DNA of 64,000 nt from an uncultured Gemmatimonadaceae bacterium (GCA_963751275.1 CAVVTZ010000007.1:896001-960000); one strand, 5' to 3'; shown: positions 4,146 to 25,535, numbered from the stretch's first letter. The notes: generated by a model not told the origin, from the sequence alone. Program-made: numbers and translations.

Positions 4146-4395
4146 CCGTATGTGGTGCCCGCACCGGGTCCTACTCTCGGCAGTCGCGGATCGAGTGGCA
4201 TCGGTTCGATTCCGATAGGCTCCACCGAGGCGTTGCCAATCGCGGTGGAAGATTGTATCGTTGGAAACCGAAGGCAGTGTCGAGTCTCGCACACTCGGAT
4301 AAAGCATTGTTTTCGTCGCACACGGTGGAGCCCAAAGGGCCCGGAGGGCCGCCAGCAGCCGAGGCGGCCCTCGTTGCATCCGCCGCTCTCGTTCG

Positions 4396-4424
4396 TTGAC
4401 TGCGTGTATGAGCCCGGCTAACTT
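4396..4424 (+). promoter_or_regulatory. Sigma70-like promoter of tRNA-Ile
   Basis: TTGACT, 17 bp, TAACTT, ending 12 nt before the tRNA. Confidence 0.7.
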
Positions 4425-4436
4425 TGGTTGCTAACC

Positions 4437-4510
<74 letters not shown>

Positions 4511-4525
4511 TGGCACGGAAGATCA

Positions 4526-4559
4526 CGCCCCGCTTGAGCTTAAATGCTTGGGCGGGGCG
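4526..4559 (+). terminator. GC-rich hairpin after tRNA, repeated after the tRNA-derived att copies
   Basis: CGCCCCGC...GCGGGGCG stem; equivalents at 11611-11644, 13838-13870, 15212-15245, 19258-19291, 25477-25509. Confidence 0.7.
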
Positions 4560-4627
4560 ATTCACATCGGCGGATTCCGACCGATGGTGTAAGTTCGTGG
4601 TGTACGCGACCGCACGCCCAGGGGAAG

Positions 4628-5686: not shown

Positions 5687-5797
5687 TGCTCGGGCGGGGC
5701 GTTTCCATTGCGTTCGAGCACCGAACGCTGTCTCTTGGAGGCAGCATCCGAACTGGGAGTGGCCCACGTCCATTGCCACGGGGAGACCTTGCCCACG

Positions 5798-8290: not shown

Positions 8291-8346
8291 AGCGCCGCAT
8301 TAAGTGGTGGCTGGAGGCCGCTGTGCATTGCGGCAGAAGAGGTGAC

Positions 8347-9324: not shown

Positions 9325-11407
9325 AGTCGCGCCTCCTCGGGCTCTTCGTTTGCCTCGCGGCGTTCGGCGTGTATGCCGCCACGGCTTATCGTACCATCAA
9401 CTGGTGGGACGCGAGCGAGTATTCCCTCGTCGCGGTGTCGCTCGGCATTGCCCACCCGCCCGGATCCCTCTTGCTCACGTTATTGGGGTGGCTGTTTCTC
9501 CGCGTGCCGCTCGGCATCTCAGCGGCCCATCAACTCAGCCTCCTCGCCGGCGTACTAGCGGCGTCGACAGTGTATCTGACGTTCGTGATGGCGACGATGC
9601 TCGTTCGCCGTACGCAGCAACGCGATCCGATGGGGAATCCAAGCGAGTCCGTGATCCCTCTGGCCGCGGCAGCCGTCGCCAGCCTCAGCTTCGCATTCAG
9701 CCCGACTCTTTGGCTCTACGCGGTTCAGTTCACACCGTACGTGCTGAGCGGCCTCTTCAGTGCGCTGCTCCTGTTCACTCTCATTGGATGGTGGCAACAC
9801 GCCGACGACGCGCGAGGGTGGCTTTGGCTGCTTGCCTTTGCGCTGCTCCTCGGACTGGACTACAGCGTTCATCGCACGAATGCTCTGTTGGTCCCCGGTG
9901 CCGTTGCCTGGGTGATCATGCGCAAGCCGTCCACGCTGCGATCCGGAAAGGTGTGGGCGGTGTCGATCGGCGGATTGTTGGCTGGTCTGAGCGTCCAGCT
10001 GCTGCTTATCCCGATATCTCGCGCGCATCCCCTGTTCGACTTCGGGCGCACGGACAGTTGGCCGGGTTTCTACGACTATGAGTCGCTGCAGCGACTCGGC
10101 GGTGGCTTCCTTGTGAAGTTCTATCCGCGAAACGCTCCTCTCTGGACGGTGCAGGCGATGGACTTCGCCCGCGCGTTCGGAGCGAACTTTGGCTGGTGGT
10201 CTGGGCCCTGGCGAATCGTGGGTAGGCATTCTGGCCGGTATTCGCTCTGGTCGGCGCGGTCACGCTCTGGCGCCGGGATCGACGCCTGGCGTTGGCGTTC
10301 GGGATCCTTCTCGCGCTTCAGGCGGTCATGACCGTGGCATTCTTCAATATCCCGACCCATTTCTTCCGGACGTTCGACCGCCACTACCTGCCTGTATTCG
10401 TGACCTGGGCGGTCTTGCTCGTCTACGGCGCCTCGACCACCACCGAATGGCTATGGAGGAGGCTAGCGCGACGGTCGCCGAGACTGGCGATGATCGCGTT
10501 CATTCTCCCGGTGGTCCCAGCGGCGACGCAGTTGGCGCGCAACTGGCGATCGATCGACGGCTCCAAGCGGACATTCGCCCGCGACTTCGCCGTCAACATG
10601 CTGGCGGCGCTCCCGGAGCACGCCATCCTCTTCACGTTCGGCGACAACGACAGCTACCCGCTCTGGTACGAGCAAGCAGTCGAGCACGTCCGTCCGGACG
10701 TGCGAGTCTTGAATCTCTCGTTGCTCTACGCGGATTGGTACATTGGCGAGGTCGTGCGGGAAGATCCGCAGTTCCCGTTGCCGGCGGGATGGACGTTGCC
10801 GGCCATGTCTACGCCCTGGCGGGACACGACCATTATCGTATCCGTCGGACGCGCGGCGTTAGACCGCGACGTCCATGCGCCGGGCGATGGAGCCCGATCG
10901 GTCGCGTTGCACGTCGCGCCGGGCGAGGATGGGAACATCGGGCGATCAGATCTGCTGGTCGCAGCGATCGTGCAGGCCAACGCCTGGCGCCGTCCGCTCG
11001 CGACTTTCGCAGCGGTAACTCCCGCGGCGATACCCGCGCTCGCGCCGTTCGCGCGGCTTGAGGGATTGTTCTGGAGGTTCGTGCCGGAAGCGGACCCCCC
11101 ACTCGATCGCGAGACAGTGCGCACCGATCTGCTTCAGACGTACGTCTACCGCGGGTACTCGGATCCGAGCATAGCGCTGGATCTCACCGACAAGATGGTC
11201 GGCAGCATCTATTTCGATCCGCTGAAGACTCTGCTCCGCGCTGATGTCGCCGCTGGTGACTTCGCGGCGTGCGCACGCACGCGCGAACAGATGCTGAAGT
11301 GGCTTCCCCCCGCCCGACTCGGCTTGGACTCTGCGCAAACTCGCGATCTCATCCCCGAATGCAACGCCGATGCTAGCAGTTCCCGCGCGACGCTGCCAAC
11401 GCGATGA
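9321..11407 (+). CDS. DUF2723 / TMEM260-like membrane glycosyltransferase, frameshift near 10225
   Basis: WWDASEY...LGIAHPPG N-terminus; AILFTFGDNDSYPLWY...RPDVRVLNLSLL in the second frame. Confidence 0.85.
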
Positions 11408-11424
11408 AAGAGATCGGAGCGATG

Positions 11425-11595
11425 ATGCTGTCCGTTATGCTGCCCGTTCAGTGCGGCATTCTACGGCATGGAGGAAAGCAGAATCCGGCAGATCGCGCGA
11501 TTCATCAATGAGTTAACGGTTTCTTGCCGTCCTTTCGCGCCGTAAGTGCACTGCTGATAAGCGTGAGGTCCGAGGTTCAACTCCTCGCAGGCCCA
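11425..11595 (+). repeat. att-like site 1: 12-bp arm repeats plus exact tRNA-Ile 3' half (11554-11595)
   Basis: ATGCTGTCCGTT ATGCTGCCCGTT; CAGATCGCGCGAT; CTGATAAGCGTGAGGTCCGAGGTTCAACTCCTCGCAGGCCCA identical to the tRNA from the anticodon loop onward. Confidence 0.92.
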
Positions 11596-13417: not shown

Positions 13418-13632
13418 GCTATGGAGTGCGCGCGTCGCTTGCGCGATCGCATCGCCCGCAGCTGAGCGCACTTTGTCAGCTGACCTCTCGGGACCCTATC
13501 GAATGCCCATATCGCGGGACGCAACTTGACGTAGCCCCCGCAAACGGGACCAACTAGTCTGGGTTCTGCGATAGGTTGGTCGTGCAGGCTCGACGGATGA
13601 AGGTCCGTGACCGCCGTGACCGCCGTGACCGT

Positions 13633-13822
13633 GGTGTAAGTTGTGGTGTAAGTTGGACCCGGCATCCTGCCGAATCGAGGGCCCAAAGTCCGGGCAGATC
13701 GCGCGATCCGCTCTATGAAAGACGGCATCGTGCCGGACTTCGGCCTACTATAGAAAGGCCTGATAAGCGTGAGGTCCGAGGTGGAGCTTCGCTCTCCTGC
13801 GGATCAACTCCTCGCAGGCCCA
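13633..13822 (+). repeat. att-like site 2: arm plus tRNA 3' half with 21-nt T-loop insertion
   Basis: GGTGTAAGTT twice; tRNA match 13758-13822 interrupted by GGAGCTTCGCTCTCCTGCGGA (13783-13803). Confidence 0.92.
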
Positions 13823-13932
13823 TACGTCCGAAGATCACGCCCCGCTCGAGCTTAGCGCTCGGGCGGGGCGTTTCGTTTCCGGCGTTGCCTATCTACCCGG
13901 TCTCTTCCATTGCGCAACAGTCATCCTGGGAG

Positions 13933-13961
13933 TTGCGAAGTGTATATGTCCATCGTATACT
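13933..13961 (+). promoter_or_regulatory. Sigma70-like promoter of brnTA, probably leaderless, with overlapping inverted repeat
   Basis: TTGCGA, 17 bp, TATACT; GTG start 7 nt downstream; GTATA/TATAC inverted pair. Confidence 0.65.
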
Positions 13962-13967
13962 TTAGCC

Positions 13968-14276
13968 GTGCCTGATCTGGACGAATTGCTCGCCGGAATG
14001 GAAGGATTCCAGTGGGACGCTGGCAACACGGACAAGAACGTGCTCGGCCACGATGTCACCCGATCGGAAGCCGAGGAGATGTTCTTTCACGCGCCGGTCG
14101 TCTTGCTCGAGGACGCCAAGCATTCCGTCGCCGAGTCGCGCTTCTTGATCTACGGCCCGACGAACGCCGGGCGCCTGCTGACAGCCGCGTTCGTCATAAG
14201 GGGTAAACGCATTCGAGTCATTTCGGTTCGCGACATGAGCCGCCAGGAGCGCCGCCGCTATGCCAAAACGCCATAA
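13968..14276 (+). CDS. brnT: BrnT family toxin (DUF497)
   Basis: FQWDAGN..KN..H.V..EAEE.F, HS..ESRF..G.T..GRLL..F..RG.RIRVISVR.MSR.ERR.Y. Confidence 0.93.
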   Translation: MPDLDELLAGMEGFQWDAGNTDKNVLGHDVTRSEAEEMFFHAPVVLLEDAKHSVAESRFLIYGPTNAGRLLTAAFVIRGKRIRVISVRDMSRQERRRYAKTP

Positions 14277-14577
14277 GAAGCTGAAGCCGATCCCGCATTT
14301 TCGCTCGGACGAAGAGGCCGGCAAGTTCTGGATGACGCACGACACGACGGCGTACGCGGACTGGAGCAAAGCACGCTTCGTCTCCTTCCCAAGCCTCCGG
14401 CCGTCGACGGCCACAATCTCGTTGCGGCTGCCTCAAAGCCTCCTCGATGAGCTTCGGACGCTGGCGAATCAACGCGATGTGCCGTATCAGTCGCTCCTCA
14501 AGGTCTATCTCGCGGAGCGCATCGCGCAGGAGCGCCGTCCCGTGCACCCGCGACGGCGTTCGCGCGCGAGCGCCTAG
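14260..14577 (+). CDS. brnA: BrnA/CopG family antitoxin
   Basis: IPHFRSDEEAGKFW.THD, TISLRLP...VPYQSLLKVYLAERI; overlaps the toxin. Confidence 0.9.
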   Translation: MPKRHKKLKPIPHFRSDEEAGKFWMTHDTTAYADWSKARFVSFPSLRPSTATISLRLPQSLLDELRTLANQRDVPYQSLLKVYLAERIAQERRPVHPRRRSRASA

Positions 14578-14625
14578 CAGGCCCATGCGCCTGTTCGTAC
14601 GCCGTCCGGCGCTCGCCACTACGCA

Positions 14626-14940
14626 ATGGCGCTATCGATCATGGTCGGTGGTGGCATCGCCAATCTGCTGGATCTTCTCCTCCACGGCTCCGTGACGGAC
14701 TTCATCGTGCTTCGAGTCCTTGGATATCGATTTGGCATCTTCAACCTGGCCGACATTGCGATCGTGTTCGGGGGCCTGCTATTCCTGTTCCTGCGCATAC
14801 GTGACGGGATTCGGGAGGAGGGTTGGCGCAGGGCGCTCTTCTCATTCTCATTGTCGCCAGATGTGTTGCTTCTGCCTCCGTCCATGCGGCCGGCGAAGCG
14901 CCCAAGCACGCCTCCTCCGACCAGCGGTCCCGGGCGATAG
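14626..14940 (+). pseudogene. lspA: C-terminal fragment of signal peptidase II
   Basis: GGGIANLLD..HGSVTDFI...GIFNLADIAI; N-terminal half with the N.G.AF motif is absent. Confidence 0.75.
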
Positions 14941-15006
14941 GTAATGAGTGGCGATCCATCGGCCTGGATCGAGAGGCCGGAACGCCGGGTGTCGTAGGGC
15001 CGCCGC

Positions 15007-15196
15007 GGTGTAAGTCGCGGTGTGAGTTCAACCCGGCATCCTGCTGTGTCTCGAGTCCGAAGTCCGGGCAGATCGCGCGATCCGCTCTATGAAACACGGC
15101 ATCGTGCCGGACTTCGACCTACTGTAGAATGGCCTGATAAGCGTGAGGTCCGAGGTGGAGCTTCGCTCTCCTGCGGATCAACTCCTCGCAGGCCCA
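15007..15196 (+). repeat. att-like site 3: arm plus tRNA 3' half with 21-nt insertion
   Basis: Colinear with 13633-13822; tRNA match 15132-15196, insertion 15157-15177. Confidence 0.92.
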
Positions 15197-15324
15197 TTCG
15201 AGTGAAGACTGCGCCCCGCTTCGACTCAACCGTCGAGGCGGGGCGTTTCGTTATGAGGACTCGGGCCGAGTGTCGCTCAGGTCTGGCCTGCTAAGAACCG
15301 TTCACCCGTCGGCCGCAACGACGG

Positions 15325-15489
15325 TTAGGCAGCTGCTCGGATGCGCAGCGCGAGGACGACAAACAGAGCACCGGATGCGAACAACCCCAGGGCACGCAGG
15401 AGATGTCCCGACGAAACGGCGAGTGCGGCAACCACCGCGAATGCTACTGCAACAACATAGGCCAACCACAACTGTGCGTTCTTGCCCAT
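15325..15489 (-). CDS. 54-aa two-helix membrane protein, not in the ORF track
   Basis: MGKNAQLWLAYVVAVAFAVVAALAVSSGHLLRALGLFASGALFVVLALRIRAAA with GGAG RBS. Confidence 0.6.
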   Translation of the reverse strand: MGKNAQLWLAYVVAVAFAVVAALAVSSGHLLRALGLFASGALFVVLALRIRAAA

Positions 15490-15818
15490 AGTCGTACTCC
15501 TGCGCTCGGAGTCTGTCTATCGCGGATGATGCGGCGCTCGGCACGTGGGCGCAAGGAAGATCTCTCTGACTCGAGGGGAAATCGTTAGCTGATGGAGGTG
15601 AGCGGCGGAACGACGGTGATCGGCGTGACCGCCGTTCTCACGGTCCATGTGCGGCTTCAGCGGGGTGCCCCGGAGCGTGTGCAAGCCGCGAGGTGCGATT
15701 CGTCTCCCTGCTGGGTGACTCTGGTCCGAGCCACGCCGCCGTCCGCGAGCCACCCCGCGCGGCAGAATACGGGAGATGCCGCGGGCGTTGCGACGTCGAT
15801 CGAGCCTCGGGTGGCATT

Positions 15819-16481
15819 GTGAGCGCCGAGTCCGCCCTTGACGCTCGCGGGAGCGCACGGATTTCGACCCTCGAACTGTTCGGCCTGCTGTGCGCGGCTA
15901 CACTCGCGATGGCATTCTACACCAACGAGGTGGTCCTCACTCGCGACGCATACCACTCGATGCTGGGCGGTCAACTGGATGCGAGTCGCATTGATGTCCT
16001 CTACCAGCTCACCCGCAAGATGCAGGTCCTCGGATATGTGCTCGCGCCGCTCTTCCTGGCGCTCCAGCTTTGGTTCCTGGCGTTCGTCGTACAGTTGTGC
16101 GCCCTCCTCTTCGGGAATGAAGTCGCGTTGGGCGCGATGTTCCGGCTCAGTGTCGTCGCGCGTTTCGCGATCCTCGCTGACACGGCCGCGCGCTCCTTCT
16201 GGCTCGGCACGATGCCGGCGTCGAGCGTGACCAAAGAGATGCTGAGTGTCGTGCCCTGGTCGTTCGCCGGGCTCTTCATGCGACCGGAGGATGCGCTCAG
16301 CCCTTCCTATGCGTTCGCCGCGGCGATCAATCCTGCGGAGCTCGCTTGGTGCTTGATCATGGTCGTCGGCCTGGCGCGGGGCGCCAAGATGACGATGGCG
16401 CGATCCGCGGCCGTCGTCGGTGGAATCTGGCTCGCCGCGCAGCTCATGAGCTACGTTCTGAGATCGTTCCTGACGCCATAG
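15819..16481 (+). CDS. Yip1-like membrane protein
   Basis: About 5 TM segments, INPAELAWC..M..GL motif; start approximate. Confidence 0.6.
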   Translation: MSAESALDARGSARISTLELFGLLCAATLAMAFYTNEVVLTRDAYHSMLGGQLDASRIDVLYQLTRKMQVLGYVLAPLFLALQLWFLAFVVQLCALLFGNEVALGAMFRLSVVARFAILADTAARSFWLGTMPASSVTKEMLSVVPWSFAGLFMRPEDALSPSYAFAAAINPAELAWCLIMVVGLARGAKMTMARSAAVVGGIWLAAQLMSYVLRSFLTP

Positions 16482-16539
16482 CATGCGCCGCACTGTCGCG
16501 CGGGCCGTTGAATCCATCTATGCTGAGGCTCGTTGAATC

Positions 16540-17253
16540 ATGATCGTCGTTTCCGGACTTGAGAAACGCTATCGGAACGTCCACGCGCTCCGAGGCGTCT
16601 CCTTCGAGGTGCCGCAAGGGGCGATCGTCGGACTCCTTGGACGGAACGGCGCGGGGAAGACCACCACGCTGCAATGCATTGCCGGCATCACGCGACCGGA
16701 CCAGGGAACGATCGTGATCGCCGGCCAGCGACTTGACGAGGCGCCGATCGAAGCCAGGCGCCGGCTGGCATTCATTCCCGACGAGCCGGAGTTCTTCGAC
16801 TATCTCACCGTGGACGAGCACATGGGCTTCTTCCGCCAGCTATACCCTGACGCGGAGGTGATCGACCCTGACCCGCTGTCCACCTTCGGCCTCGAGGAGA
16901 AGCGGGGGGCATTCCCCGATGAGTTGTCCCGCGGCATGAGGCAGAAGCTGGCCATGGCGTGCACGCTCTGGAGGCGGGCGGACGCCGTGCTGCTGGATGA
17001 ACCGCTCACGGGCCTCGACCCTTCCGGCATTGCGGAGGCGAAGCGTCTCGTGCGAGCGCTGGCCGCACAGGGCTCGGCGGTCCTGCTGAGCTCACATCTG
17101 CTGCATCTCGTGCGGGAACTCTGCTCGCGCATAGTCGTGATCGAACGCGGGGCGATCGTTGCCGACCAGGCGATCGCCAACGCAGCTGGCGCTGCCGGCG
17201 ACGAGCTCGAGCGGTTCTTCTCTCCGACTCTCCGCGAAGCGTCCGATTCGTGA
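16540..17253 (+). CDS. ABC transporter ATP-binding protein
   Basis: GRNGAGKTT, LSRGM, LLDEP, SSH motifs. Confidence 0.95.
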   Translation: MIVVSGLEKRYRNVHALRGVSFEVPQGAIVGLLGRNGAGKTTTLQCIAGITRPDQGTIVIAGQRLDEAPIEARRRLAFIPDEPEFFDYLTVDEHMGFFRQLYPDAEVIDPDPLSTFGLEEKRGAFPDELSRGMRQKLAMACTLWRRADAVLLDEPLTGLDPSGIAEAKRLVRALAAQGSAVLLSSHLLHLVRELCSRIVVIERGAIVADQAIANAAGAAGDELERFFSPTLREASDS

Positions 17254-18911
17254 CGGTGCCTCTCCGCTTCTTCGCGCTTCGTTCCTTCCGGAATGCAGCG
17301 GCCCGCCAGATCCGCACACCGCGCGGCGCCGCAGCGGTCGTGATCGGCGCGGTGTACGCGGGCTGGATGCTCCTCGGCCAGCGTCCTCTCCTGACGATCG
17401 TCGATGCAGCGTGGGTCGGCCGCATCGGGGCTGCCGCGGCGTTCCTCGCTTCGGGCATGGCATGGTGGCAAGGATCACGGCGCATCGCGTTACGCGCACC
17501 GGAGCGCCAGTGGCTCGCGACCGCGCCGATCACCAGCGGACGGGTCCTCAGCTTTCATGCACTGGGACGCGTGCCGACGCTGCTGCTCAGCGCCGGCGTT
17601 CTCGCGGTAATCCTGAGGGCACCCACAATATTTGGCACCCTCTACCGTGGCGCGGCGATCGTCGTGGTCCTCGGGGTCGTCGAGGCGCACCAGCTGATCG
17701 CTGCCGTCGTGGCGGAACGAGTTGATCGAGGCATACGGCGCGCCGCGACCCTTCGCTGGTTCGTGCGAGTCGGTTACTGCGGGCTGGCCCTGGCCGCAAT
17801 CGCTGTCGGCGTGGCGGCGCTGTTCGCGGTGCAGGATCTGGCGGCGCGCGCTGCGTTCCGCGCGTGGGCACAGCGGGTGGCCGACAACGACGTGTGGTTC
17901 GCTTTCGGTCCCTTCACGGTGCTGGCGCGCGGCGTACTCGAGGATGGCGGCGGCGAACGCATGCGGGCGCTGGGAACGGCCATCCTGCTGCTCGCGGTCG
18001 AGCTGGCCTGGCTCGCTCGGGCGGGCATTGCGTGGCCGGAGCAGGCCGCGGAGACTCGCAGGGCCGGCAATGGGCGGCGAATGTTTCGCCGTGCGCCGCC
18101 TTCGTTGTTTCCGGGCAGGCTACTGCGGGGGTCCGAGTTCGCGTTCGCCTGGAAGAACATGCTCACGGCACCTCGAACGCAGCGGCTGGCGCCGCAGCTT
18201 GCCCTGTGCGTCGCCGTGCCGCTGTTGCTGTGGTTGACGGCGACTCCGATCTTTCACCGTTTCACAGAGTTCGCGTTCGGGCTCTCCTCCGTGTGGGGAC
18301 TGACGCTGATCGCCGCCGGACCGATGCTGATCCGCAACGATCTGCGCATGGATCTTCCACGGCTCCGGCTGCTCAAGTCACTACCGTTGCGTTCGAGGAG
18401 ACTCTTGATGGCCGAGAGTCTTCCGGCCGCCATCCTCCTATGGTGCTTCCAGCTCGTACTCGTTTCGCTGGCGTGGGTCGCGCTCGCGCCGAACCCAGTC
18501 ATGGCCGGGGTTGGCGCCCTTGGCTGGCCGATCGTGATCGCCACGATCATTGCGCTGGCAGGGGTCAATCTCGCAGTGGTGCTCTGTCACACGCTCGTGG
18601 CGCTGTGGCTCCCTTCGCTCTCCCTGCTCGGTGTGGCACGTTCCTCGAGGATCCGGGGAGGTGGGCAGTACTACCTGTTGCTCACGGCTGCCCTGGTGCA
18701 GTTCGCGATCATCATGCTCCTGCCCGCCCTGGTGGGGCTCATCGCGTTCGGCGCCACGCAGGCATCGTGGGGCAGGGCGCCGGCGGCCATTCTCGCGGGA
18801 GCCGCGATAGGCATGGTGGCACTGGCCGAAGCCATGGTGTTGGTCGCACTGGGAGGGCGTGCGTTCGAGAGATTGAATGTGTCGGAAGTACCTCGCTCGG
18901 CGACCGGATGA
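17250..18911 (+). CDS. Putative ABC exporter permease
   Basis: Multi-TM, AFAWKN, RNDLRMDL..LKSLPL; overlaps the ATPase stop. Confidence 0.8.
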   Translation: MTVPLRFFALRSFRNAAARQIRTPRGAAAVVIGAVYAGWMLLGQRPLLTIVDAAWVGRIGAAAAFLASGMAWWQGSRRIALRAPERQWLATAPITSGRVLSFHALGRVPTLLLSAGVLAVILRAPTIFGTLYRGAAIVVVLGVVEAHQLIAAVVAERVDRGIRRAATLRWFVRVGYCGLALAAIAVGVAALFAVQDLAARAAFRAWAQRVADNDVWFAFGPFTVLARGVLEDGGGERMRALGTAILLLAVELAWLARAGIAWPEQAAETRRAGNGRRMFRRAPPSLFPGRLLRGSEFAFAWKNMLTAPRTQRLAPQLALCVAVPLLLWLTATPIFHRFTEFAFGLSSVWGLTLIAAGPMLIRNDLRMDLPRLRLLKSLPLRSRRLLMAESLPAAILLWCFQLVLVSLAWVALAPNPVMAGVGALGWPIVIATIIALAGVNLAVVLCHTLVALWLPSLSLLGVARSSRIRGGGQYYLLLTAALVQFAIIMLLPALVGLIAFGATQASWGRAPAAILAGAAIGMVALAEAMVLVALGGRAFERLNVSEVPRSATG

Positions 18912-19052
18912 CCTCGGGGGCAAGGCTCGTGAAGCAACGCCCGTACCAGACTAATCACCTTCATTCCGTCAGAGACACGGAGTTCGTCACGGCGAAGCAG
19001 GGTGTTAAGTCGCGGCCCGGGCGCGCGTGAGACGGAGCGCGCGACTCTTCGC

Positions 19053-19242
19053 GGTGTAAGTTGTGGCGTAAGTTCGACCCAGCTTCCTGCTGTTTCTATG
19101 GGTCGAAATCCGGGCAGATCGCGCAATCCGCTCTATGAAACACGGCATAGTCCCGGAACTCGGCCTACTATAGAAAGGCCTGATAAGCGTGAGGTCCGAG
19201 GTGGAGCTTCGCTCTCCTGCGGATCAACTCCTCGCGGGCCCA
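19053..19242 (+). repeat. att-like site 4: arm plus tRNA 3' half with 21-nt insertion
   Basis: Colinear with sites 2 and 3; tRNA match 19178-19242, insertion 19203-19223. Confidence 0.92.
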
Positions 19243-19406
19243 TATCGATCAAGATCACGCCCCGCTTGAGGCAGCCTGCACAAGCGGGGCGTTGTCGAAT
19301 CCACGCGACGTGAACCTCGCCGAGCACGCGCGCAGCGCCAGGCTTACCCCTACATAACGCCAGCGAATGCGACCACAGTCGCGTGACCTGACGTGCGCTA
19401 TCCTGA

Positions 19407-20537
19407 GTGCATGATTCGCATCACGTCCGCCGACTGCACCGGCGCCACCGCCGCCGATTCGCGGAGATCGGCGTGAGCACCGGCGCCGTTGCGCTCGGCC
19501 CGGCCCCGACGGCTGTACCGTCGTTACCGAAGTGGCTCGCCGGCGTGTCCGGCGCCATCGCGCTCTGGGTCGTCGTGTATTGGCAATTGGAACCGCTCTC
19601 GCACTGGATCACCCTGCAGCTCGGCCTCGAACGCGGCACCCACCTCGAGGAGGCGGTGCGATTCTTCGCCTTTGATGCGCCGAAGGTGTTGATGCTGCTG
19701 ACCCTCGTCGTGTTCGCGATGGGGGTCGTGCGCACGTACTTTTCGCCCGAGCGGACCCGGGCGCTGTTGGCCGGGAAGGCCGAGGGCGTCGGCAACATCG
19801 CGGCGGCCGGACTCGGCATCTTCACCCCGTTCTGCTCCTGCTCCGCGGTGCCGCTCTTCGTGGGATTCGTTTCCGCCGGGATCCCGCTCGGAGTCACCTT
19901 CTCCTTCCTGATCGCGGCGCCGATGATCAACGAGGTGGCGCTCGGTCTCCTCTTCGCCCTGCTCGGCTGGCAGACCGCGCTCACCTACCTCTTCTTCGGC
20001 CTCGCGGTCGCCATCGTCGCCGGCTGGGTCATCGGCCGTCTGCACCTGGAAGGCTGGCTCGAGGAGTGGGTGCGTGGCGTTCGCGCCGTGGATGCCGCGG
20101 TGCCGACGGAACAGTTCACCTTCGTCGGCCGACTGAAGGCAGGCCTCTCCTCCATTCGCGAGATCGTCGAAAAGGTCTGGATGTGGATCATCGGCGGGAT
20201 CGCGGTCGGGGCCTTCATCCACGGCTATGTGCCCGCTGAACTCCTGGCGACGATCATGGGCAAGGGATCATGGTGGTCGGTGCCGGCGGCCGTGCTCGTC
20301 GGCATCCCAATGTATTCCAACGCCGCGGGCATCATCCCGATCGTCGAAGCGCTCCTCGGCAAGGGCGCAGCGCTGGGGACGGTGCTCGCCTTCATGATGT
20401 CGGTGATCGCGCTGTCGCTCCCCGAGATGATCATCCTGCGCAAGGTGCTGAGCGGCAAGCTGATCGCGGTCTTCATCGCGGTGGTCGCCGCCGGCATTCT
20501 GGCGGTGGGATTCCTGTTCAACTTCCTGTTCACTTAG
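19407..20537 (+). CDS. ArsP/DUF318 family permease
   Basis: TPFCSCSAVPLF, FSFLIAAPMINEV, GIPMYSNAAG, ALSLPEMIILRKV; true start may be near 19473. Confidence 0.9.
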   Translation: MHDSHHVRRLHRRHRRRFAEIGVSTGAVALGPAPTAVPSLPKWLAGVSGAIALWVVVYWQLEPLSHWITLQLGLERGTHLEEAVRFFAFDAPKVLMLLTLVVFAMGVVRTYFSPERTRALLAGKAEGVGNIAAAGLGIFTPFCSCSAVPLFVGFVSAGIPLGVTFSFLIAAPMINEVALGLLFALLGWQTALTYLFFGLAVAIVAGWVIGRLHLEGWLEEWVRGVRAVDAAVPTEQFTFVGRLKAGLSSIREIVEKVWMWIIGGIAVGAFIHGYVPAELLATIMGKGSWWSVPAAVLVGIPMYSNAAGIIPIVEALLGKGAALGTVLAFMMSVIALSLPEMIILRKVLSGKLIAVFIAVVAAGILAVGFLFNFLFT

Positions 20538-20553
20538 CGCGAGGCAACGGATC

Positions 20554-20793
20554 ATGAAGGACTTCAAGATCCTTGGACCCGGATGTTCCAATTGCAAGAC
20601 CACGACGGCCCTCATCGAGACCGTCGCCCGGGAGAAAGGTGTGGAGATCCGTCTCACCAAAGTGGTGGAGATGGAGGACATCATGTCCTATGGCATCATG
20701 TCCACTCCGGGCGTGGTGCTGGACGAGCGCGTCGTTCACGCGGGCGGTGTACCGAGCCGAGCCAAGATCGAGGGTTGGTTCGCCGGAGCGTGA
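20554..20793 (+). CDS. Small redox-active disulfide protein (MTH895/TM0996 thioredoxin family)
   Basis: ILGPGCSNC...YGIMSTPGVVLDE.VV.AG.VPS. Confidence 0.92.
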   Translation: MKDFKILGPGCSNCKTTTALIETVAREKGVEIRLTKVVEMEDIMSYGIMSTPGVVLDERVVHAGGVPSRAKIEGWFAGA

Positions 20794-21128
20794 GGTCCGA
20801 GGTCGCCCCCCGACCCCGGAACCCATCACCGATCGTCCCGGAACGGGGGCACCCTCAAGTGCGGAATCGCATGCTCACACCTCCGCATCGATATCCGATA
20901 GGCTCTTGCAGGGTACTACGAAATCGAAGGCGAAAGAAACTGTACGGCGGCGATCAAGTACTCGCACGCCCATTCAAGTGCAGGTGATGCCGCGCCTCGA
21001 CCACACGGTCCCGGCGGGGCGCTCGTTCGAAGCGCCTTCGCCCTTGGCCACGGCACTCCGCATCGGCTAGCTTCCAAGCCGCTGTTCACCTGCCGAATCA
21101 TCACTCGCGAACGTCGGAGCAAGAATCC

Positions 21129-22607
21129 ATGAGCGTCACCCTGCGCCGGATCTCCTCGTTGGTCATCATGAGTGCCGCCTCGATGACTCTCATCGCGGGC
21201 TGCAGCAAGAAGGACGACGCGATCTCCCAGGCCGCGAAGAACGACGCAGCCAAGGGCGTGTCCGCGCCGGGCATCGAGCAGACCAAGGCGATCGCCGAGG
21301 AAGGGTTCGTCTACGGACTGCCGCTCGTCATGAACTACGCGGTGATGTACGAGTTCGCGGTGGACAGCACCTCGAGCCAGTTCAAGGCGCCCTTCAACCA
21401 GATCAACAACCAGCACCGCGTGGCGACCTACCTCGACTCGGCGGTCATCACGCCGAACAGCGACACGCCGTATTCCATGTTGTGGCTGGATCTGCGCGCG
21501 GAGCCGATGGTGATCACGGTGCCGGCGGTGCCGAAGCCGCGCTACTACTCGGTGCAGTTGATCGACGGGAACACCTACAATGACGGCTACATCGGCAGCC
21601 GCACCACCGGCACCGAGGCCGGGAGTTATCTCGTCGCCGGTCCCGGCTGGACGGGCAAGACTCCCGCCGGCATCAAGAAGGTGTTCACGTCGACGACTCC
21701 CTTCATGCTCACGCTCTTCCGCACGCAGCTGTTCGACCCGGCCGACATGCCGAACGTCGAGAAGGTGCAGGCCGGCTATAGCGCGCAGCCGCTGTCGGCG
21801 TTCCTCAAGCAGCCCGCGCCGCCCGCGGCGCCCAAGATCGATTTCCTCCCGGCCACCACGGCCGGGATCAAAGCGAATTTCTACGAGTACCTCTCGTTCG
21901 CGCTGCAGTTCGTTCCGCCCACCGCGCAGGACAGCGGGATCCGCGCGCGGCTCGCGAGCATCGGCGTCGGGCCGGGCAAGACGTTCGAGTTCAAGGACCT
22001 GTCGGTCGAGCACAAAGCCGCGGTGCTGCTCGGCATGAAGGCGGGCGACGACCAGGTGGACAAGTTCCTCGCCAGCGGGAACAAGAACATCAACGGCTGG
22101 AACGTCGGCGCGTTCTTCGGAGACAGCGCGTTCTTCAAGGGCCGCTGGCTCATGCGGGCCGCGGCGGCCAAGGGCGGACTCTACGGGAATGACGCCGAGG
22201 AGGCGATGTATCCGTACACGCGCACGGATGGGAAGGGTGAAACGTTGGACGGCAGCAAGCACAACTACACGATCACGTTCGCGAAAGGGCAGCTCCCGCC
22301 GGTGAACGCGTTCTGGTCGGTGACGATGTACGATGGCAAGAGCCAGCTGCTGATCAAGAACCCGCTCGACCGGTATCTGATCAACTCGCCGATGCTGTCC
22401 GCCATGAAGAAGGGCGCCGACGGCTCGGTCACGCTCTACATCCAGAAGGATTCGCCGGGCAAGTCACTCGAGTCCAACTGGCTGCCCGCGCCGAACGACG
22501 TGATCTACATGGTCCTTCGCCTCTACTGGCCGAAGACCACGGCGCCGTCCATCCTGCCGCCCGGCGACGGAACGTGGAAGCCGCCGGCCATCACAGTGTC
22601 GAAATAG
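21129..22607 (+). CDS. DUF1254/DUF1214 lipoprotein
   Basis: Lipobox IAGC; TPNSDTPYS..WLDL..EP, LDGS..Y..F..GQLPPVNAFWSVTMY, NWLPAP, LRLYWP. Confidence 0.92.
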   Translation: MSVTLRRISSLVIMSAASMTLIAGCSKKDDAISQAAKNDAAKGVSAPGIEQTKAIAEEGFVYGLPLVMNYAVMYEFAVDSTSSQFKAPFNQINNQHRVATYLDSAVITPNSDTPYSMLWLDLRAEPMVITVPAVPKPRYYSVQLIDGNTYNDGYIGSRTTGTEAGSYLVAGPGWTGKTPAGIKKVFTSTTPFMLTLFRTQLFDPADMPNVEKVQAGYSAQPLSAFLKQPAPPAAPKIDFLPATTAGIKANFYEYLSFALQFVPPTAQDSGIRARLASIGVGPGKTFEFKDLSVEHKAAVLLGMKAGDDQVDKFLASGNKNINGWNVGAFFGDSAFFKGRWLMRAAAAKGGLYGNDAEEAMYPYTRTDGKGETLDGSKHNYTITFAKGQLPPVNAFWSVTMYDGKSQLLIKNPLDRYLINSPMLSAMKKGADGSVTLYIQKDSPGKSLESNWLPAPNDVIYMVLRLYWPKTTAPSILPPGDGTWKPPAITVSK

Positions 22608-22692
22608 CGAGGCCCGATCATGCGCAAACTCATTGCACTCGCCGCGCTGGGTGTTTCGCTCGCCCGCGCGTCTCGCCGCGGATGTGATGCGC

Positions 22693-25386
22693 TCACGGCT
22701 TGGCCTTCGCCTTCAGCGCCTGGGTCCAGTTCTCGGTGACGATCAGCTCCACTCCCTCCGCCGCGCCGCCCGTCTCGCGCAGCATCAGGAAGCGGCGGTC
22801 ATCCGGCGCCACTGAGTACATCGTCCGGGAACCCGATGCCACGTAGGGCGCCGCATTGAATAGCGCGCGTTGCTGAGCGGCGCTGAACACCGGGCTCGTC
22901 ACGACCGCTGCGGCGACGAACATTCCCTTCCCATTCCTGAAATACAGCTCTCCACCGCTGTGCGACCAGGCGGGCTCGCTCCCGCCGGCAACCGAGACCT
23001 GCCAGCGCGCCTTCGCGGCGTCGGGGAAGGGGCGCACATACACCTCTTTCGCGCCGGTCTCGTTCGAGACGTAGGCGAGCCACCTGCCGTCGGGGGAGAC
23101 CGCCGGCGAGGTCTCCCGCGCCGGACTCGCGACGAGCGGCGCGAGCGCGCTATCCCCCTCCTTCACGCCGAAGATATCTCCATTCCCCGGTTCAAGGGTC
23201 TGCCGCCGCGCGACGTACCATTTCCCGGCCGGTGATTCCTCAATCTCGGAAAAGGTCCAGGACGACGGGAAGAGCGGTCGCGCCGCACTCGCGCCATCGG
23301 CGCTCTTCGACATGGGGACGCCGCCCAAGTTGCCGCGATCCGACACGTACAGCACCGCGCGGCCATCCGCGGACCAACTCGGATGCAGGCTCGAAGTGTC
23401 GCCGAGCGTGAGACGGGAGAACGGTCCGCCAGGGATCCGCTTCACCCAAATGTCGGTGTGCGGTGGCTGCTCGAGCTCCACGGCGATCGCCTTGCCGTCG
23501 GGAGACAGCGCCGCGCCGATGACGTTTCCCTCCGCGCGCCACGTGGAGTCCACCGGTGTGCTCTTGCCCTCGCGGCTCACCCAGTCGATCTCCCGCCCGA
23601 CGGGCTTGGCCAGCCGCTGGAAGACGAGGGTGCCCGAATTGGAGAGCGCGATGCCCGACGAATAGATGGCCGTCTCCAGTCCGTCGTAGAGCACGACCGG
23701 CGCACCGGTGAGCGCGAGCGAGCGTTCGCTGAAGGGGACGGCGAGGAGCTTCCCGTCCGCGGTGACGACGAGGAGGTGGCCGCTCGGGGAGTAGCGCGCG
23801 TAAATGCCGCGGATCAGTTGACGCGGCTCACCAGCGGGGCGGGGGATCACCACGATCTGCTCATCGCCCGGTCCGCCCCCCTGGTAGCGGATGCGGACGA
23901 TCACGCCGCGGCCCCCCGGCAACAGACTCGCGAATTCCACGCCGACCTCACGGCGCGCACTCGAGATCATGTAGAAGCGGTCGATCTTCCCGCCGCCGCT
24001 GGGGATGCGCGCGAGGCCCGAGTCGGTCTCGAAGTAGATGAAGCCGTCGGTACCCCAGGAGGCGGCCGTGGTCGCGGCACTGTCGGTGAGGATGCGCGGC
24101 GCGGTCCCGTCCAGCGGCACCACTCGGATGCTCCGCCCCTCCTTCACGTACGCGAGCTGCTTTCCGTCGGGCGAGAAGAAGGGCTCCGCCATCCCCTCGG
24201 TGCCGGGGATCGGTTCGGGGCGTGCCCTGTCCCGCTCCTTCACGAAGAGACGGATCGTGCCCTCTCCCTTGCCCACATAGACGATGCGCCCGCCATGCGG
24301 GGAGATCGCGAGGAGCGACAGGAGCAGGTTCGGTCCTCCGGGCTGGAACGCCGCCTCAGCGGGGAGGGCGAGACTGTACTGCGTGAGCGGCGGCGGCGCA
24401 CCGCCGCGCAGCCATCCCCACGCCGCCGCCACGGCGAAGATGATCGTCGCCGCGCCGAGGATCGCGGCGAGCCGGCCGCCGCGCAGGCGTGCGGCCGGCG
24501 TGAAGGAGGGGATCGCCATCGTCGCACCCGCGGGATCGACCGCCGGTGCGCCGATGGCGCGAATGAACGTGTCGGCGCTGTTGAAGCGATCCGCGGGCAG
24601 CTTGGCGAGCGCGCGATGCACCGCCGCGGCGATCTGCGGGGGCACCGTGGGCCGCCGCGATGAGAGCGGCTCGGGCGCTCGCGTCACCACGGCGGCGATC
24701 ACGGCTTGCATCGTCGCGCCGGTGTGCGGCGGCGAGCCGGCGATCATTTCATAGACGAGCGTGCCCAGCGAGTAGACATCCGAGCGCGCGTCGAGTTTCC
24801 GCTCGCCCGTCGCCTGTTCCGGGCTCATGTAGTCCGGCGTGCCGACGGACATGCCCGTCCCGGTCATCCGGCCCCGGTCGGCTGAACTCACCGCCAGCGC
24901 GATCCCGAAGTCCGCCACCAGCGCCTGGCCGTCGTGCAGCAGGATGTTCTCAGGCTTGATGTCGCGGTGGATCACGCCGTGCCGGTGCGCGTAATCGAGG
25001 GCGGAACCGACCTCCGTCGCGATGCGCACGACGTCTTCGATCGGGAGCTGCGTCTCGCGCTGGAGGCGCGTGCGCAGGCTCTCCCCTTCGACGAGCGGCA
25101 TCACATAGTAGAGGAACGAATCCACCTGCCCTGAATCGAAGAGCGGGAGAATGTGCGGGTGCTGCAGCGCGGCGGTGGTCTTGATCTCGGCGAGGAATCG
25201 TTCGGCGCCGATCACGGCCGCGAGCTCAGGCCGCAACACCTTGAGCGCGACCTTCCGGTCGTGGCGAAGGTCATGGGCCACGTACACGGTCGCCATCCCT
25301 CCCTCGCCGAGCACGCCCTCGATGCGGTAGCGGTCGGCGATCGCCGCGGCGAGGCGCGCGGGCGGCGTTTCAGGCGAGTCGGTCAC
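22693..25386 (-). CDS. Ser/Thr protein kinase with TM segment and PD40/TolB-like beta-propeller
   Basis: LGEGGMATVY, VALK, HRDIKPEN, DFGIA, GTPDYMSPE; SPDG repeats. Confidence 0.95.
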   Translation of the reverse strand: MTDSPETPPARLAAAIADRYRIEGVLGEGGMATVYVAHDLRHDRKVALKVLRPELAAVIGAERFLAEIKTTAALQHPHILPLFDSGQVDSFLYYVMPLVEGESLRTRLQRETQLPIEDVVRIATEVGSALDYAHRHGVIHRDIKPENILLHDGQALVADFGIALAVSSADRGRMTGTGMSVGTPDYMSPEQATGERKLDARSDVYSLGTLVYEMIAGSPPHTGATMQAVIAAVVTRAPEPLSSRRPTVPPQIAAAVHRALAKLPADRFNSADTFIRAIGAPAVDPAGATMAIPSFTPAARLRGGRLAAILGAATIIFAVAAAWGWLRGGAPPPLTQYSLALPAEAAFQPGGPNLLLSLLAISPHGGRIVYVGKGEGTIRLFVKERDRARPEPIPGTEGMAEPFFSPDGKQLAYVKEGRSIRVVPLDGTAPRILTDSAATTAASWGTDGFIYFETDSGLARIPSGGGKIDRFYMISSARREVGVEFASLLPGGRGVIVRIRYQGGGPGDEQIVVIPRPAGEPRQLIRGIYARYSPSGHLLVVTADGKLLAVPFSERSLALTGAPVVLYDGLETAIYSSGIALSNSGTLVFQRLAKPVGREIDWVSREGKSTPVDSTWRAEGNVIGAALSPDGKAIAVELEQPPHTDIWVKRIPGGPFSRLTLGDTSSLHPSWSADGRAVLYVSDRGNLGGVPMSKSADGASAARPLFPSSWTFSEIEESPAGKWYVARRQTLEPGNGDIFGVKEGDSALAPLVASPARETSPAVSPDGRWLAYVSNETGAKEVYVRPFPDAAKARWQVSVAGGSEPAWSHSGGELYFRNGKGMFVAAAVVTSPVFSAAQQRALFNAAPYVASGSRTMYSVAPDDRRFLMLRETGGAAEGVELIVTENWTQALKAKAKP

Positions 25387-25433
25387 GCGGGCAAGTTGCA
25401 GGTGATGTACGGGAGTAGCAAGCGCCCTGACGC

Positions 25434-25509
25434 CCGAGGTGGAGCTCCGCGCTGGTACGGTTCAACTCAAAGGCCACGCCCCGCCCGAGCTTCGCGCTCG
25501 GGCGGGGCG
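25434..25509 (+). repeat. Degenerate att-like copy (T arm with 21-nt insertion plus hairpin)
   Basis: CCGAGGT-GGAGCTCCGCGCTGGTACGGT-TCAACTC followed by the CGCCCCGC...GCGGGGCG hairpin. Confidence 0.7.
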
Positions 25510-25535
25510 TTGCGTTCGTGTGGCTCCGGCGCCGC

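Follow-up and report, generated by a model that had tools for sequence, protein, structure and literature searches.

CIMEs of the ICESt1 type are att-bounded elements that stand in tandem next to a target gene and carry neither integrase nor transfer genes. The attC sites of integrons are hairpins bounded by inverse-core and core sites (the R''/R' pair, RYYYAAC / GTTRRRY), with a G|TT junction, and are located near intI and attI. For islands in tRNA genes, the Islander criteria, as given in excerpts of PMC4383910, take a boundary of tRNA identity at the anticodon loop to point to crossover in this loop. A different arrangement is described in excerpts of a report on Dehalococcoides ssrA islands, where a conserved 15-bp motif that cannot be aligned with ssrA lies just upstream of a 20-bp repeat and placed the insertion at a mid-T-loop position (PMC3146451). 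According to the same excerpts, 15 of these islands have no integration module, and such module-less islands are read as cis-mobilizable and joined by accretion (PMC3146451). In the literature that we searched, no description was found of a tRNA repeat interrupted by a conserved 21-nt hairpin at T54/T55.

Organization of the tRNA-Ile array

The window analysed here is a stretch of 64,000 nt from an uncultured soil bacterium of the Gemmatimonadaceae. It carries an intact tRNA-Ile(GAT) gene, the sole tRNA-Ile copy of this assembly in a search with a 42-nt pattern. Downstream of this gene are tRNA-Ile fragments at 11552, 13758, 15132, 19178 and 25428, all of them on the + strand. The following features were found:

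4437..4510, + strand: intact tRNA-Ile(GAT), head of the array, without insert (ARAGORN; Rfam RF00005, 72.4 bits)
4511..11551, + strand: module A, with an unknown ORF, an ADOP/MacB-type permease (5708-8290), a TMEM260-like gene (9273-10331) and others, integrase-less (Pfam, NCBIfam and PHROGs scans; genome-wide PF00589 search)
11552..11595, + strand: site 1, tRNA-Ile 3' fragment without insert, tRNA identity from the anticodon loop (CTGATAAG), then a terminator-like hairpin (sequence)
13629..13757, + strand: site 2 arm, a conserved element arm in which CCGGCA/TGCCGG and GGTGTAAGTT motifs recur (repeat family D1)
13758..13782, + strand: site 2, tRNA-like stretch from anticodon loop to T54 (sequence)
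13783..13803, + strand: site 2, 21-nt insert (exact match)
13804..13822, + strand: site 2, tRNA 3' end, the last 19 nt from T55 to the discriminator base (sequence)
13837..13871, + strand: terminator-like hairpin 3' of site 2, with a stem of 15 bp and then a T run (terminator scan)
15003..15131, + strand: site 3 arm (repeat family D1)
15132..15196, + strand: site 3 block of tRNA-like 25 nt, insert (15157-15177) and 19-nt 3' end (sequence)
15211..15246, + strand: terminator-like hairpin 3' of site 3 (terminator scan)
19049..19177, + strand: site 4 arm (repeat family D1)
19178..19242, + strand: site 4 block, in which a 19-nt 3' end with a single A-to-G change follows the tRNA-like 25 nt and the insert (19203-19223) (sequence)
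19258..19291, + strand: hairpin 3' of site 4, CGCCCCGCTTG...CAAGCGGGGCG (read by eye; not called by the terminator scan)
25428..25468, + strand: site 5, decayed tRNA-like stretch, diverged 21-mer (25441-25461) and TCAACTC, the remaining 3' end deleted (family D12; covariance-model match, 22.1 bits)
25477..25509, + strand: terminator-like hairpin 3' of site 5 (sequence)

Most module genes and all terminators share one strand. The units are 1.4-7 kb in size, with several genes each and 130-nt arms. They are bounded by att sites on both sides, and Pfam, NCBIfam and PHROGs scans found no recombination or transfer genes in them. A gene fragment in module C is a C-terminal piece of lspA, so the array is decaying at least in part. 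The outermost site, site 5, is armless and has decayed flanks; its fragment ends after TCAACTC with the terminator directly joined. Synteny with G041, a genome of the same genus, restarts at 25527, just beyond this site; a diverged insert followed by TCAACTC and a terminator beside syntenic DNA favours an element-side position of the insert.

The array resembles Islander-type attR fragments in that an intact tRNA heads it and same-orientation 3' direct repeats, each with a terminator, follow downstream. As in such islands, related arms are found in integrase-bearing elements of relatives, and both anticodon-centred junctions and junctions in the T-stem region occur. The intact target tRNA and the displaced fragments in the same orientation, for which the Islander test looks, are present, but an integrase inside each island is not, and the repeat is split by a 21-nt hairpin at T54/T55. 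Like CIMEs, the modules are att-bounded, arranged in tandem beside the target gene and devoid of integrase and transfer genes. In contrast to CIMEs, the array is partly decaying, as the lspA piece indicates, and any mobility in cis or in trans is putative.

Position and conservation of the insert

A sequence search of the window found the 21-mer GGAGCTTCGCTCTCCTGCGGA as exact matches at 13783-13803, 15157-15177 and 19203-19223 on the + strand; 100 shuffles gave no match to it. At these sites (2 to 4) its left neighbour is GCCTGATAAGCGTGAGGTCCGAGGT and its right neighbour is TCAACTCCTCGC(A/G)GGCCCA. The insertion point lies between T54 and T55, after the first T of the T loop, of tRNA-Ile(GAT) 3' fragments, and the insert splits the 44 nt of tRNA identity into 25 + 19 nt. 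The T-loop sequence is uninterrupted in the intact tRNA (4437-4510) and at site 1 (11552-11595). At site 5, a relative, GGAGCTCCGCGCTGGTACGGT, occupies 25441-25461 with 15 of 21 positions identical (manual count), and repeat family D12 aligns here with 80% identity over 41 nt. The earlier note was thus right about the shared T-loop insert at 13783, 15157 and 19203, the diverged 21-mer at 25441, the absence of an insert from the tRNA and site 1, and the mini-hairpin GAGC-TTC-GCTC, which is found within the insert. Its statement that the T stem stays pairable is accurate for the window, where both strands, CGAGG and CCTCG, are preserved. In relatives, the upstream T-stem strand differs from that of the host in 8 of the 20 insert sites whose left flank is tRNA-like, compared with 1 of 29 sites without insert, and GTCGG is common to six insert sites whose hosts have GGAGG (both by manual reading). 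Because the strands are often unmatched in relatives, pairability is not a general property.

Identity among the three insert sites is 98-100% in the 65-nt block, which spans exactly from anticodon loop to tRNA 3' end, and 83-86% in the flanking arms and 68-72% in the trailers. The site 2 arm is 92% identical to an arm of G041. This genome also has a site that is orthologous to window site 3 on both flanks and lacks the insert, so a single homologous site can gain or lose its insert. On sequence comparison, this presence/absence difference fits gene conversion as well as element history.

The earlier note had considered that the insertion might be unique to this locus. This was checked, and tRNA-Ile fragments of at least 17 other Gemmatimonadota genomes and of 7 metagenome contigs have homologous inserts (21, 37-38 or 42 nt) at the same position. 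The pattern CCTNCGGNTCAACTCCTCNNNGGCCCA matched 15 stretches in 13 MAGs, all titled Gemmatimonad*, and the 7 metagenome contigs; BLAST added insert sites in G304, G093, G028, G105 and G308. Among 57 distinct sites with an intact 3' block, 28 contain an insert. A covariance model gave 30 insert-type matches at E <= 0.002 among the collected loci, three of them new. The inserts of L046 and L050 are one base off the window insert, although their arms can hardly be aligned. The perfect 19-mer 3' of the inserts is partly imposed by the anchor of the search pattern; in sites found without the anchor it is kept at 18/19 or 15/19 or is lost (L054:2889, L062:4303, L026, L076). The window-type pattern has real matches in only two of 401 family genomes (G000 and G304), and the four one-mismatch matches of this search all lie in unrelated contexts. 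An exact 21-nt match in G355 to part of the unit lies within an ORF and was judged to be chance. Scanning viral contigs with the insert pattern gave no matches, and BLAST of the unit against plasmids and phages gave none.

None of the 23 intact tRNA-Ile genes examined carries the insert (9 from the site survey, 12 next to an integrase, and those of G041 and G403), and all insert sites lack the tRNA 5' half. For these reasons a tRNA intron was rejected. The gene is single-copy in all five genomes tested. The 21-mer is a conserved hairpin-forming module of non-functional tRNA-Ile 3' copies and not a tRNA mutation, and the copies that bear it mark junctions of integrase-less island modules in the Gemmatimonadaceae array.

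Predicted fold and variants

The predicted fold (-18.8 kcal/mol for 41 nt, z -2.6) joins the 5' strand of the T stem to CCTGCGG of the insert instead of to the other T-stem strand, and the insert together with this 5' strand would form one long hairpin. Variation is concentrated at predicted bulge, loop and closing positions. Covariation analysis, as the earlier note had proposed, gave modest support for the hairpin. Longer variants arise by tandem doubling to 42 nt (L016, L024, L057) and by nested palindromic growth to 37-38 nt (L042-L044, L060, L061), and L059 contains at least 2.5 tandem 66-nt units. The inverted repeat CCTGCG...CGCAGG between the insert end and the acceptor strand was rejected as a general core site; it is perfect in the window and, by eye, is not kept elsewhere.

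Junctions, arms and recombinases

Plain fragments have their boundary of tRNA identity at the anticodon loop, and the arms beside the window inserts belong to the same family as the arms of insert-less sites that start there. Some arms keep the whole anticodon stem-loop (L067:543, L077, L060:1132). With an anticodon-loop crossover, the insert would be on the displaced, target-derived side and not on the element side. Judged from the sequences, there is a second junction exactly at the insertion point, with tRNA identity starting at TCAAC. At 1127192 in G041, the tRNA identity of a fragment is limited to TCAAtTCC...CCA. 'Mini' or 'empty' units, in which a tRNA or plain fragment is followed by a short spacer, the hairpin, TCAACTCC..CCA and a terminator, are present in L027, L033, L045 (two), L048, L052 and L059, and also in L044, L051, L060 and L061. 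As this junction coincides with the insertion point, the insert need never have been inside a tRNA. The expectation in the earlier note that serial integration should displace intact tRNA halves holds if every crossover is 5' of the insert, in the anticodon loop, but not for the second junction at TCAAC.

No PF00589 match was found among the 30 ORFs of 4500-27000, and there is no integrase in the five modules. A genome-wide six-frame PF00589 search gave three matches, all elsewhere (XerC, XerD and IntI). No PF00589 match lies within 5 kb of the insert in the 14 MAG loci scanned. G402 has an insert site and only two PF00589 matches, with scores similar to those of the Xer pair in the genome analysed here. 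In G103, G403 and G401, by contrast, related arms are accompanied by an integrase; these three array-side integrases form one family (41-49% identity) and are found with both kinds of right end. The integrase-bearing element of G401 has its insert at the integrase-distal end, and none of 13 integrase-adjacent tRNA-Ile blocks contains one. The G401 integrase has no relative in the viral contigs. A serine recombinase, considered by analogy with Dehalococcoides, was rejected after PF00239 gave no match in G000, G041 and G401-G403.

Origin of the insert

By analogy with the ssrA islands, we tentatively favour, at somewhat less than an even chance, that the insert is an element-side att-site motif abutting a mid-T-loop junction; its location on the element side of the crossover is held with the same reserve. 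Among the results given above, those in favour of this reading are the spread of the insert, its absence from intact genes, the junction at TCAAC, the structure of site 5, the high identity of the 65-nt block, the upstream T-stem strands that differ from those of the hosts, and the integrase-distal insert of G401. Those against it are the arms with tRNA identity from the anticodon loop, the single integrase family found with both kinds of right end, the insert-less G041 site, the 19-mer partly imposed by the search anchor, the PF00589 and PF00239 searches that yielded no recombinase for a T-loop junction, and the modest covariation. To the right of the insert would be the 19-nt repeat (TCAACTCC...GGCCCA) and the terminator, kept by any integration that restores the single-copy tRNA-Ile. 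To the left would be arm DNA, which in this lineage is still tRNA-like from anticodon loop to T54. If the junction is 3' of the insert, serial integration of the related modules B to E would leave an insert at each right end, and the working tRNA gene would never be interrupted. Pairing of the insert with the 5' T-stem strand would abolish the T arm, and this loss together with the 25/19 split should reduce exchange with the gene; if exchange did take place 5' of the insert, the T loop of the resulting tRNA-Ile gene would contain a hairpin. The insert may act in recombination or help to keep the array stable. The suggestion of the earlier note that it limits recombination with the tRNA may be correct, as the tRNA-like sequence upstream of the insert has decayed, which fits it indirectly.

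The ssrA islands, as far as the excerpts describe them, share with this array tandem islands downstream of a single-copy essential gene, each ending in a short 3' repeat, an element-side motif directly upstream of this repeat with a mid-T-loop junction, and many members without an integration module. They differ in that they use the serine recombinase DsiB and a tmRNA gene, according to the same excerpts, whereas here the target is tRNA-Ile and PF00239 is not found in five genomes. Moreover, the hairpin forms here with the retained tRNA-like stretch, so that the motif looks like an insertion into a fragment, unlike in the ssrA islands.

A selectively neutral origin seems unlikely. In a dead fragment, template switching or slippage at the inverted repeat of the T arm would have created a palindromic indel, which then spread by short-patch gene conversion through the 25-nt and 19-nt homologies, while selection excludes it from the essential gene. 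An orthologous site known both with and without insert, three identical copies inside diverged flanks, and the doubled, nested and 66-nt tandem variants are as expected for such an indel; the weak covariation and the rarity of the window-type pattern (2/401 family genomes) also fit. However, the insert and the adjoining GCGTGAGGTC are nearly invariant where arms and trailers have diverged past easy alignment, variation is confined mostly to predicted bulge, loop and closing positions, and the inserts form one sequence lineage across many genera instead of many independent events. It is a little less probable still that the insert belongs to non-autonomous units with anticodon-loop recombination, in whose P' (integrase-side) arm it would lie, and that these units insert at secondary sites. 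Such units would not rebuild a working tRNA-Ile, so only the att sites of resident elements would be viable and the units would accumulate distal to a normal element. One inference of the earlier note was that units with the insert cannot rebuild a normal tRNA and must use secondary array sites, which fits a single-copy gene and the absence of the insert from any intact copy. Accretion at module B's right end would produce the order of tRNA, plain site 1 and insert sites 2-4, the limits of the conserved block are exactly the anticodon loop and the tRNA 3' end, and the anticodon-loop boundary of the plain fragments is typical of such integrases in the excerpts of PMC4383910. Evidence against it comes from the integrase side, where the insert is found in 0/13 blocks, and from G401, where it is at the integrase-distal end. 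The outermost site 5 would be expected to be the original plain half and instead has a diverged insert. L044, L051, L061 and the mini units are without any anticodon-loop sequence, the anticodon-loop heptamer is substituted at many insert sites (by eye, with no formal count), and the right flank of site 3 is common to the insert-less G041 site.

Doubtful to a slightly greater degree is a function of the predicted hairpin in RNA, either in read-through transcripts from the upstream module or in the pre-tRNA-Ile 3' trailer of mini units. There it might sequester the variable loop and the T-stem 5' strand and block folding or processing of the T arm, or it might mark a processing or stability site before the terminator. 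The earlier note had likewise suggested a structured RNA or processing signal, to which the hairpin potential and the sense-strand G-U bias lend weak support. The sense fold is better than the antisense fold in 21 of 29 sites, with 47 predicted G-U pairs in sense folds and 7 in antisense folds, but this excess is due to two or three inherited positions. Nested stems enter the loop while the basal stem is kept, and most module genes share their strand with all of the terminators. L048 and L052 carry the motif in the trailer of their intact tRNA, and its sequence there complements the T-stem 5' strand and T loop of the same tRNA. Against this, stability relative to shuffles is modest (mean z -1.05; 5 of 28 below -2), sequence conservation of the stem is higher than structure alone would require, no promoter-like site is near the units, and Rfam 15 matched the whole window only with RF00005, at the tRNA. 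An independent sRNA gene was rejected, as neither a sigma-70-like site near the units nor an Rfam match was found.

Analogy to folded sites and significance

The structural analogy to attC comprises an imperfect hairpin next to a junction, a variable bulged base, and a loop that ranges from 3 nt to a nested stem. Integrase-less units stand in an array in both, and this genome encodes an integron integrase (TIGR02249, 414 bits). The differences are that there is no R''/R' pair here, that the junction is not G|TT, and that the units are multigene (1.4-7 kb) with 130-nt arms. An integron array with attC sites was rejected. Only the native T loop GTTCAAC fits RYYYAAC, with no partner box and the junction one base off. 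The intI gene is at the end of another contig (C9), where the upstream 11 kb showed no attC-like array, and G402 has its insert site with just two PF00589 matches; the integron was kept as an analogy. A REP or MITE family was also rejected: GAGCNNNGCTCNCCTNCGG, searched with up to one mismatch in its own genome, gave 3 exact and 2 one-mismatch matches compared with 5 matches of the reversed control, and the 218-nt unit is found at this locus only.

By analogy, the hairpin might also be the working part of a recombination site recognised when folded and single-stranded, as for attC or the attP of CTX phage, or a trailer anti-T-stem hairpin that controls maturation of the sole tRNA-Ile; we regard this as very improbable. 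If a folded site were used, the tRNA-Ile locus of Gemmatimonadota would anchor a cassette-like array with a trans-acting recombinase and a mid-T-loop junction. If the module instead belongs to an att site as favoured above, it would define a second, mid-T-loop junction at a single-copy essential tRNA and a lineage of integrase-less modules across a poorly studied soil phylum. Should it make exchange with the gene unproductive, stabilising the array would be a simple route to cargo fixation. Displaced tRNA fragments are standard marks in island mapping, and the split into 25 + 19 nt could hide or misplace junctions. At present, the insert is of value as a well-defined putative motif with about 30 natural variants.

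The tRNA-Ile array in the window

Downstream of an intact tRNA-Ile(GAT) gene, five copies of its 3′ part were found on the same strand. The features of the array are:

4437–4510, + strand: intact tRNA-Ile(GAT) gene, without insert
11552–11595, + strand: site 1, uninterrupted tRNA-Ile 3′ fragment
13758–13822, + strand: site 2, fragment with insert
15132–15196, + strand: site 3, fragment with insert
19178–19242, + strand: site 4, fragment with insert
25428–25468, + strand: site 5, fragment whose flanks are decayed and whose end is deleted after TCAACTC

At sites 2, 3 and 4, GGAGCTTCGCTCTCCTGCGGA is flanked by GGT on its left and TCAAC on its right, which places it directly behind the first T-loop base. 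Site 5 carries a relative that is identical at 15 of 21 positions. The T-loop insert that the earlier note had described in the displaced fragments was therefore borne out at sites 2–4, with a diverged relative at site 5. In a control search, the 21-mer was matched in none of 100 shuffles, and a search of the own genome ruled out that it is a dispersed repeat there. Each of sites 2–4 closes a copy of a 218-nt repeat (family D1) on the 3′ side. Behind every site there is a GC-rich, terminator-like hairpin; its inner stem varies among the copies while pairing is kept. The conserved arm to the left of the sites contains a further hairpin, CGGCATCGTGCCG (13723–13735 and 15097–15109), which, read on the minus strand, is a short hairpin with a T-rich run behind it and could stop antisense transcription into the modules between the sites. 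ARAGORN also called a permuted tmRNA at 4132–4628, overlapping the tRNA-Ile gene; this is probably a false call, since there was no Rfam tmRNA match in the window.

Occurrence of the insert in other genomes

A BLAST search with the 218-nt unit matched 194 of 401 family genomes, mostly in the tRNA part, in many cases including the arm and in some including the insert. The window-type pattern itself is rare, with true matches in 2 of the 401. These tallies and the 251-genome integrase tally below include two unpublished genomes (G134 and G297), on neither of which any specific claim rests. When one genome per species was scanned for the exact pattern, 15 stretches were hit in 13 MAGs, every one of them titled Gemmatimonad*, and the corresponding metagenome scan gave 7 contigs; a viral collection yielded 0 matches to the insert pattern. 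The earlier note had named uniqueness to this locus as a point that would tell against its proposal; the insert is not unique, as inserts at the same point occur in other Gemmatimonad* MAGs and in metagenome contigs. The extracted loci contain 57 distinct sites whose 3′ block is intact: the T arm is plain in 28, an insert occupies this point in another 28, and one site shows neither state. A covariance model trained on 11 of the insert sites found 30 insert-type matches (E ≤ 0.002), 3 of them missed by the pattern. Most inserts are 21 nt long. In five loci (L042–L044, L060 and L061) the length is 37–38 nt and the loop encloses a second, nested stem, and in three (L016, L024 and L057) it is 42 nt, corresponding to two tandem units. 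A 21-nt exact match to GGTGGAGCTTCGCTCTCCTGC in another genome (L078, G355:C6, about 758220–758245) was judged to be due to chance; it lies inside an apparent membrane-protein ORF (...PGWSFALLLLG...).

No intact gene examined carries the insert. It was absent from all 9 intact tRNA-Ile genes in extracted loci with 3′ blocks, from all 12 beside an integrase, and from the genes of G041 (same genus) and G403 (a relative). A 42-nt pattern of tRNA-Ile(GAT) occurred once per genome in 5 genomes, 3 of which are 99–100% complete. Because the gene is single-copy and none of these intact genes carries the insert, an insert inside it is most likely not tolerated.

Junction types and integrases

Two types of junction were observed. 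In plain fragments, those without the insert, the sequence shared with the tRNA begins at the anticodon loop and continues to the 3′ end, and some arms retain a complete anticodon stem-loop. In the Islander site classes (PMC4383910), such a fragment boundary denotes an anticodon-centred site. Three relatives (G103, G403 and G401) have elements that combine arms of this family with an integrase on the tRNA side. Their integrases share 41–49% mutual identity; at E ≤ 1e-40, members of their family were detected in 39 of the 251 genomes. Across 30 loci with this integrase family, the gene lies beside an intact tRNA-Ile in 12 cases and beside a fragment in one, and all 13 blocks are plain.

The second junction type falls exactly at the insert position. 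A fragment in G041 has only TCAAtTCC...CCA in common with the tRNA. ‘Mini’ or ‘empty’ units consist of the hairpin followed directly by TCAACTCC..CCA and a terminator, and lie a few tens to ~200 nt behind a tRNA or plain fragment. In locus L059, a 66-nt unit composed of a 19-nt tRNA end, a spacer and the hairpin is repeated at least 2.5 times, which is tandem amplification of a mini unit. On this metagenome contig (Ga0193726_1025045, first ~150 nt, + coordinates) the repeats lie directly behind an intact tRNA-Ile and run up to the contig end. The textbook reading for the insert-point junction pattern comes from the Dehalococcoides ssrA islands, where a conserved motif that does not align to the gene is found just upstream of the short repeat. 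This motif marks element DNA adjoining a mid-T-loop junction; islands that lack integration genes build up there by accretion (PMC3146451).

Position of the crossover

Under the proposed mechanism, the crossover would lie 3′ of the insert and modules B to E would be related units. The right arm of each unit would end in a tRNA-like stretch plus insert, and every integration would have restored only the last 19 nt of the tRNA and the terminator. Such a junction would account for the lack of an insert in the gene and in site 1, for the decayed insert directly before the terminator and syntenic DNA at the outermost site 5, and for the drift of the stretch 5′ of the insert from the host tRNA in other genomes. 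By our reading of the site comparison, GTCGG stands upstream of the insert in hosts with GGAGG, and the upstream stretch mismatches the host tRNA at 8 of 20 insert sites versus 1 of 29 plain sites. Several points speak against a junction at the 3′ edge. The arm is common to insert sites and to plain sites of anticodon-centred appearance, and the insert is absent from the G041 site whose two flanks are orthologous to those of site 3. One integrase family occurs with both kinds of right end. The 19-mer downstream of the insert was imposed by the search pattern, and it too decays in unanchored sites. Nor was a recombinase for a T-loop junction found: PF00589 gave no match in the array or within 5 kb of the insert in the 14 loci scanned, and PF00239 gave none in 5 genomes. 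The earlier note's interpretation is partly right. Its statement that units with the insert cannot rebuild the tRNA holds for an exchange 5′ of the insert, and the insert splits the homology with the tRNA gene; an unusual history of insertions need not follow if the junction lies at the 3′ edge. The insert sites are read as remnants of att sites in an accretion-type array, and they carry a conserved hairpin.

Structure and conservation of the hairpin

The 3′ part of the insert, CCTnCGG, is complementary to the variable loop and the 5′ strand of the T stem, and the tip of the hairpin is GAGC-nnn-GCTC. The predicted fold is a single long hairpin with a bulged base at the n of CCTnCGG. Eleven copies of equal length vary at the bulge, the loop and the closing pair; GAGC/GCTC is changed to GACC/GGTC in two of them and to GGGC/GCTC in two. 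On 28 distinct rows of an alignment that had been fitted to the model, 79.8% of cells are paired, compared with 38–56% when partners are slid, and 3 pairs show changes on both sides. The observed percentage paired was reached by 8 of 500 shuffles and the covariation score by 29 of 500, so that formal covariation support is modest. The 28 insert sites had a mean fold z of -1.05 against shuffles, and the 22 plain sites one of 0.02. The sense strand gave the better fold in 21 of 29 sites. Sense folds contain 47 G-U pairs versus 7 in antisense folds, an excess that traces to two or three inherited positions.

Identity among the window sites is 83–86% in the arms, 68–72% in the trailers to the right of the sites and 98–100% in the 65-nt block. 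By our arithmetic, the probability that two independent pairs keep all 21 insert bases at ~15% divergence is about 0.001. Across genomes (partly judged by eye), the insert and the adjoining GCGTGAGGTC are nearly fixed, the arms diverge and the anticodon-loop heptamer gains changes. To judge from these sequence comparisons, the block would either be functional, or be homogenised by gene conversion within genomes and young between them; we give function, be it in DNA or in RNA, somewhat more weight. There was no promoter call near the units and no Rfam match for the insert in the window.

Cargo and genomic setting

Synteny with G041 ends at the tRNA and restarts at 25527, so the entire 21 kb is variable DNA. 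The five intervals measure 1.4 to 7 kb, and their cargo genes lie mainly on the + strand. They encode an ADOP/MacB-type permease, a TMEM260-like protein, a BrnA-like antitoxin, an lspA fragment, an ABC ATPase, an ArsP permease, a DUF1254/DUF1214 protein and a Ser/Thr kinase with PD40 repeats; no recombinase genes were found in them. In module C (13962–14940), the BrnA-like antitoxin ORF (14260–14577) matches NF047399 with 42 bits, below the cut-off of 60, and the ORF at 14626–14940 matches signal peptidase II over its C-terminal third alone. A homologous lspA-like stretch is present in G041, where the module order is different.

In the own assembly (3.1 Mb, 83% complete), PF00589 is represented only by XerC, XerD and an integron integrase, none of them within the window. 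The integron integrase gene (C9:726650–727786, L041:1150–2286; TIGR02249, 414 bits, cut-off 265) is located ~1 kb from the end of contig C9. The 11 kb upstream showed no attC-like array, so a cassette array, if any, may sit past the assembly break. Repeats of 21–28 nt of the CCCGAACGCCGTGAGGCG type are clustered in both direct and inverted order at window 61753–61908 and at L064:3666–4068 and 6564–6763, with 69–96-nt inverted arms on contig C9; they appear to be a dispersed repeat family of their own in this genome. Window positions 42816–45366 and 57928–60474, 15.1 kb apart, share 71–81% identity across several 140–300-nt blocks (families D2–D5, D7 and D9), which points to the duplication of a gene cluster. 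Some motifs there, CTCATCATGACCGACGAC among them, look like those of sulfatases. An acidic, Asp/Glu-rich repeat with 18-nt periodicity (family D6) is located at 1995–2141, just 3′ of the typA/bipA ORF (46–1893).
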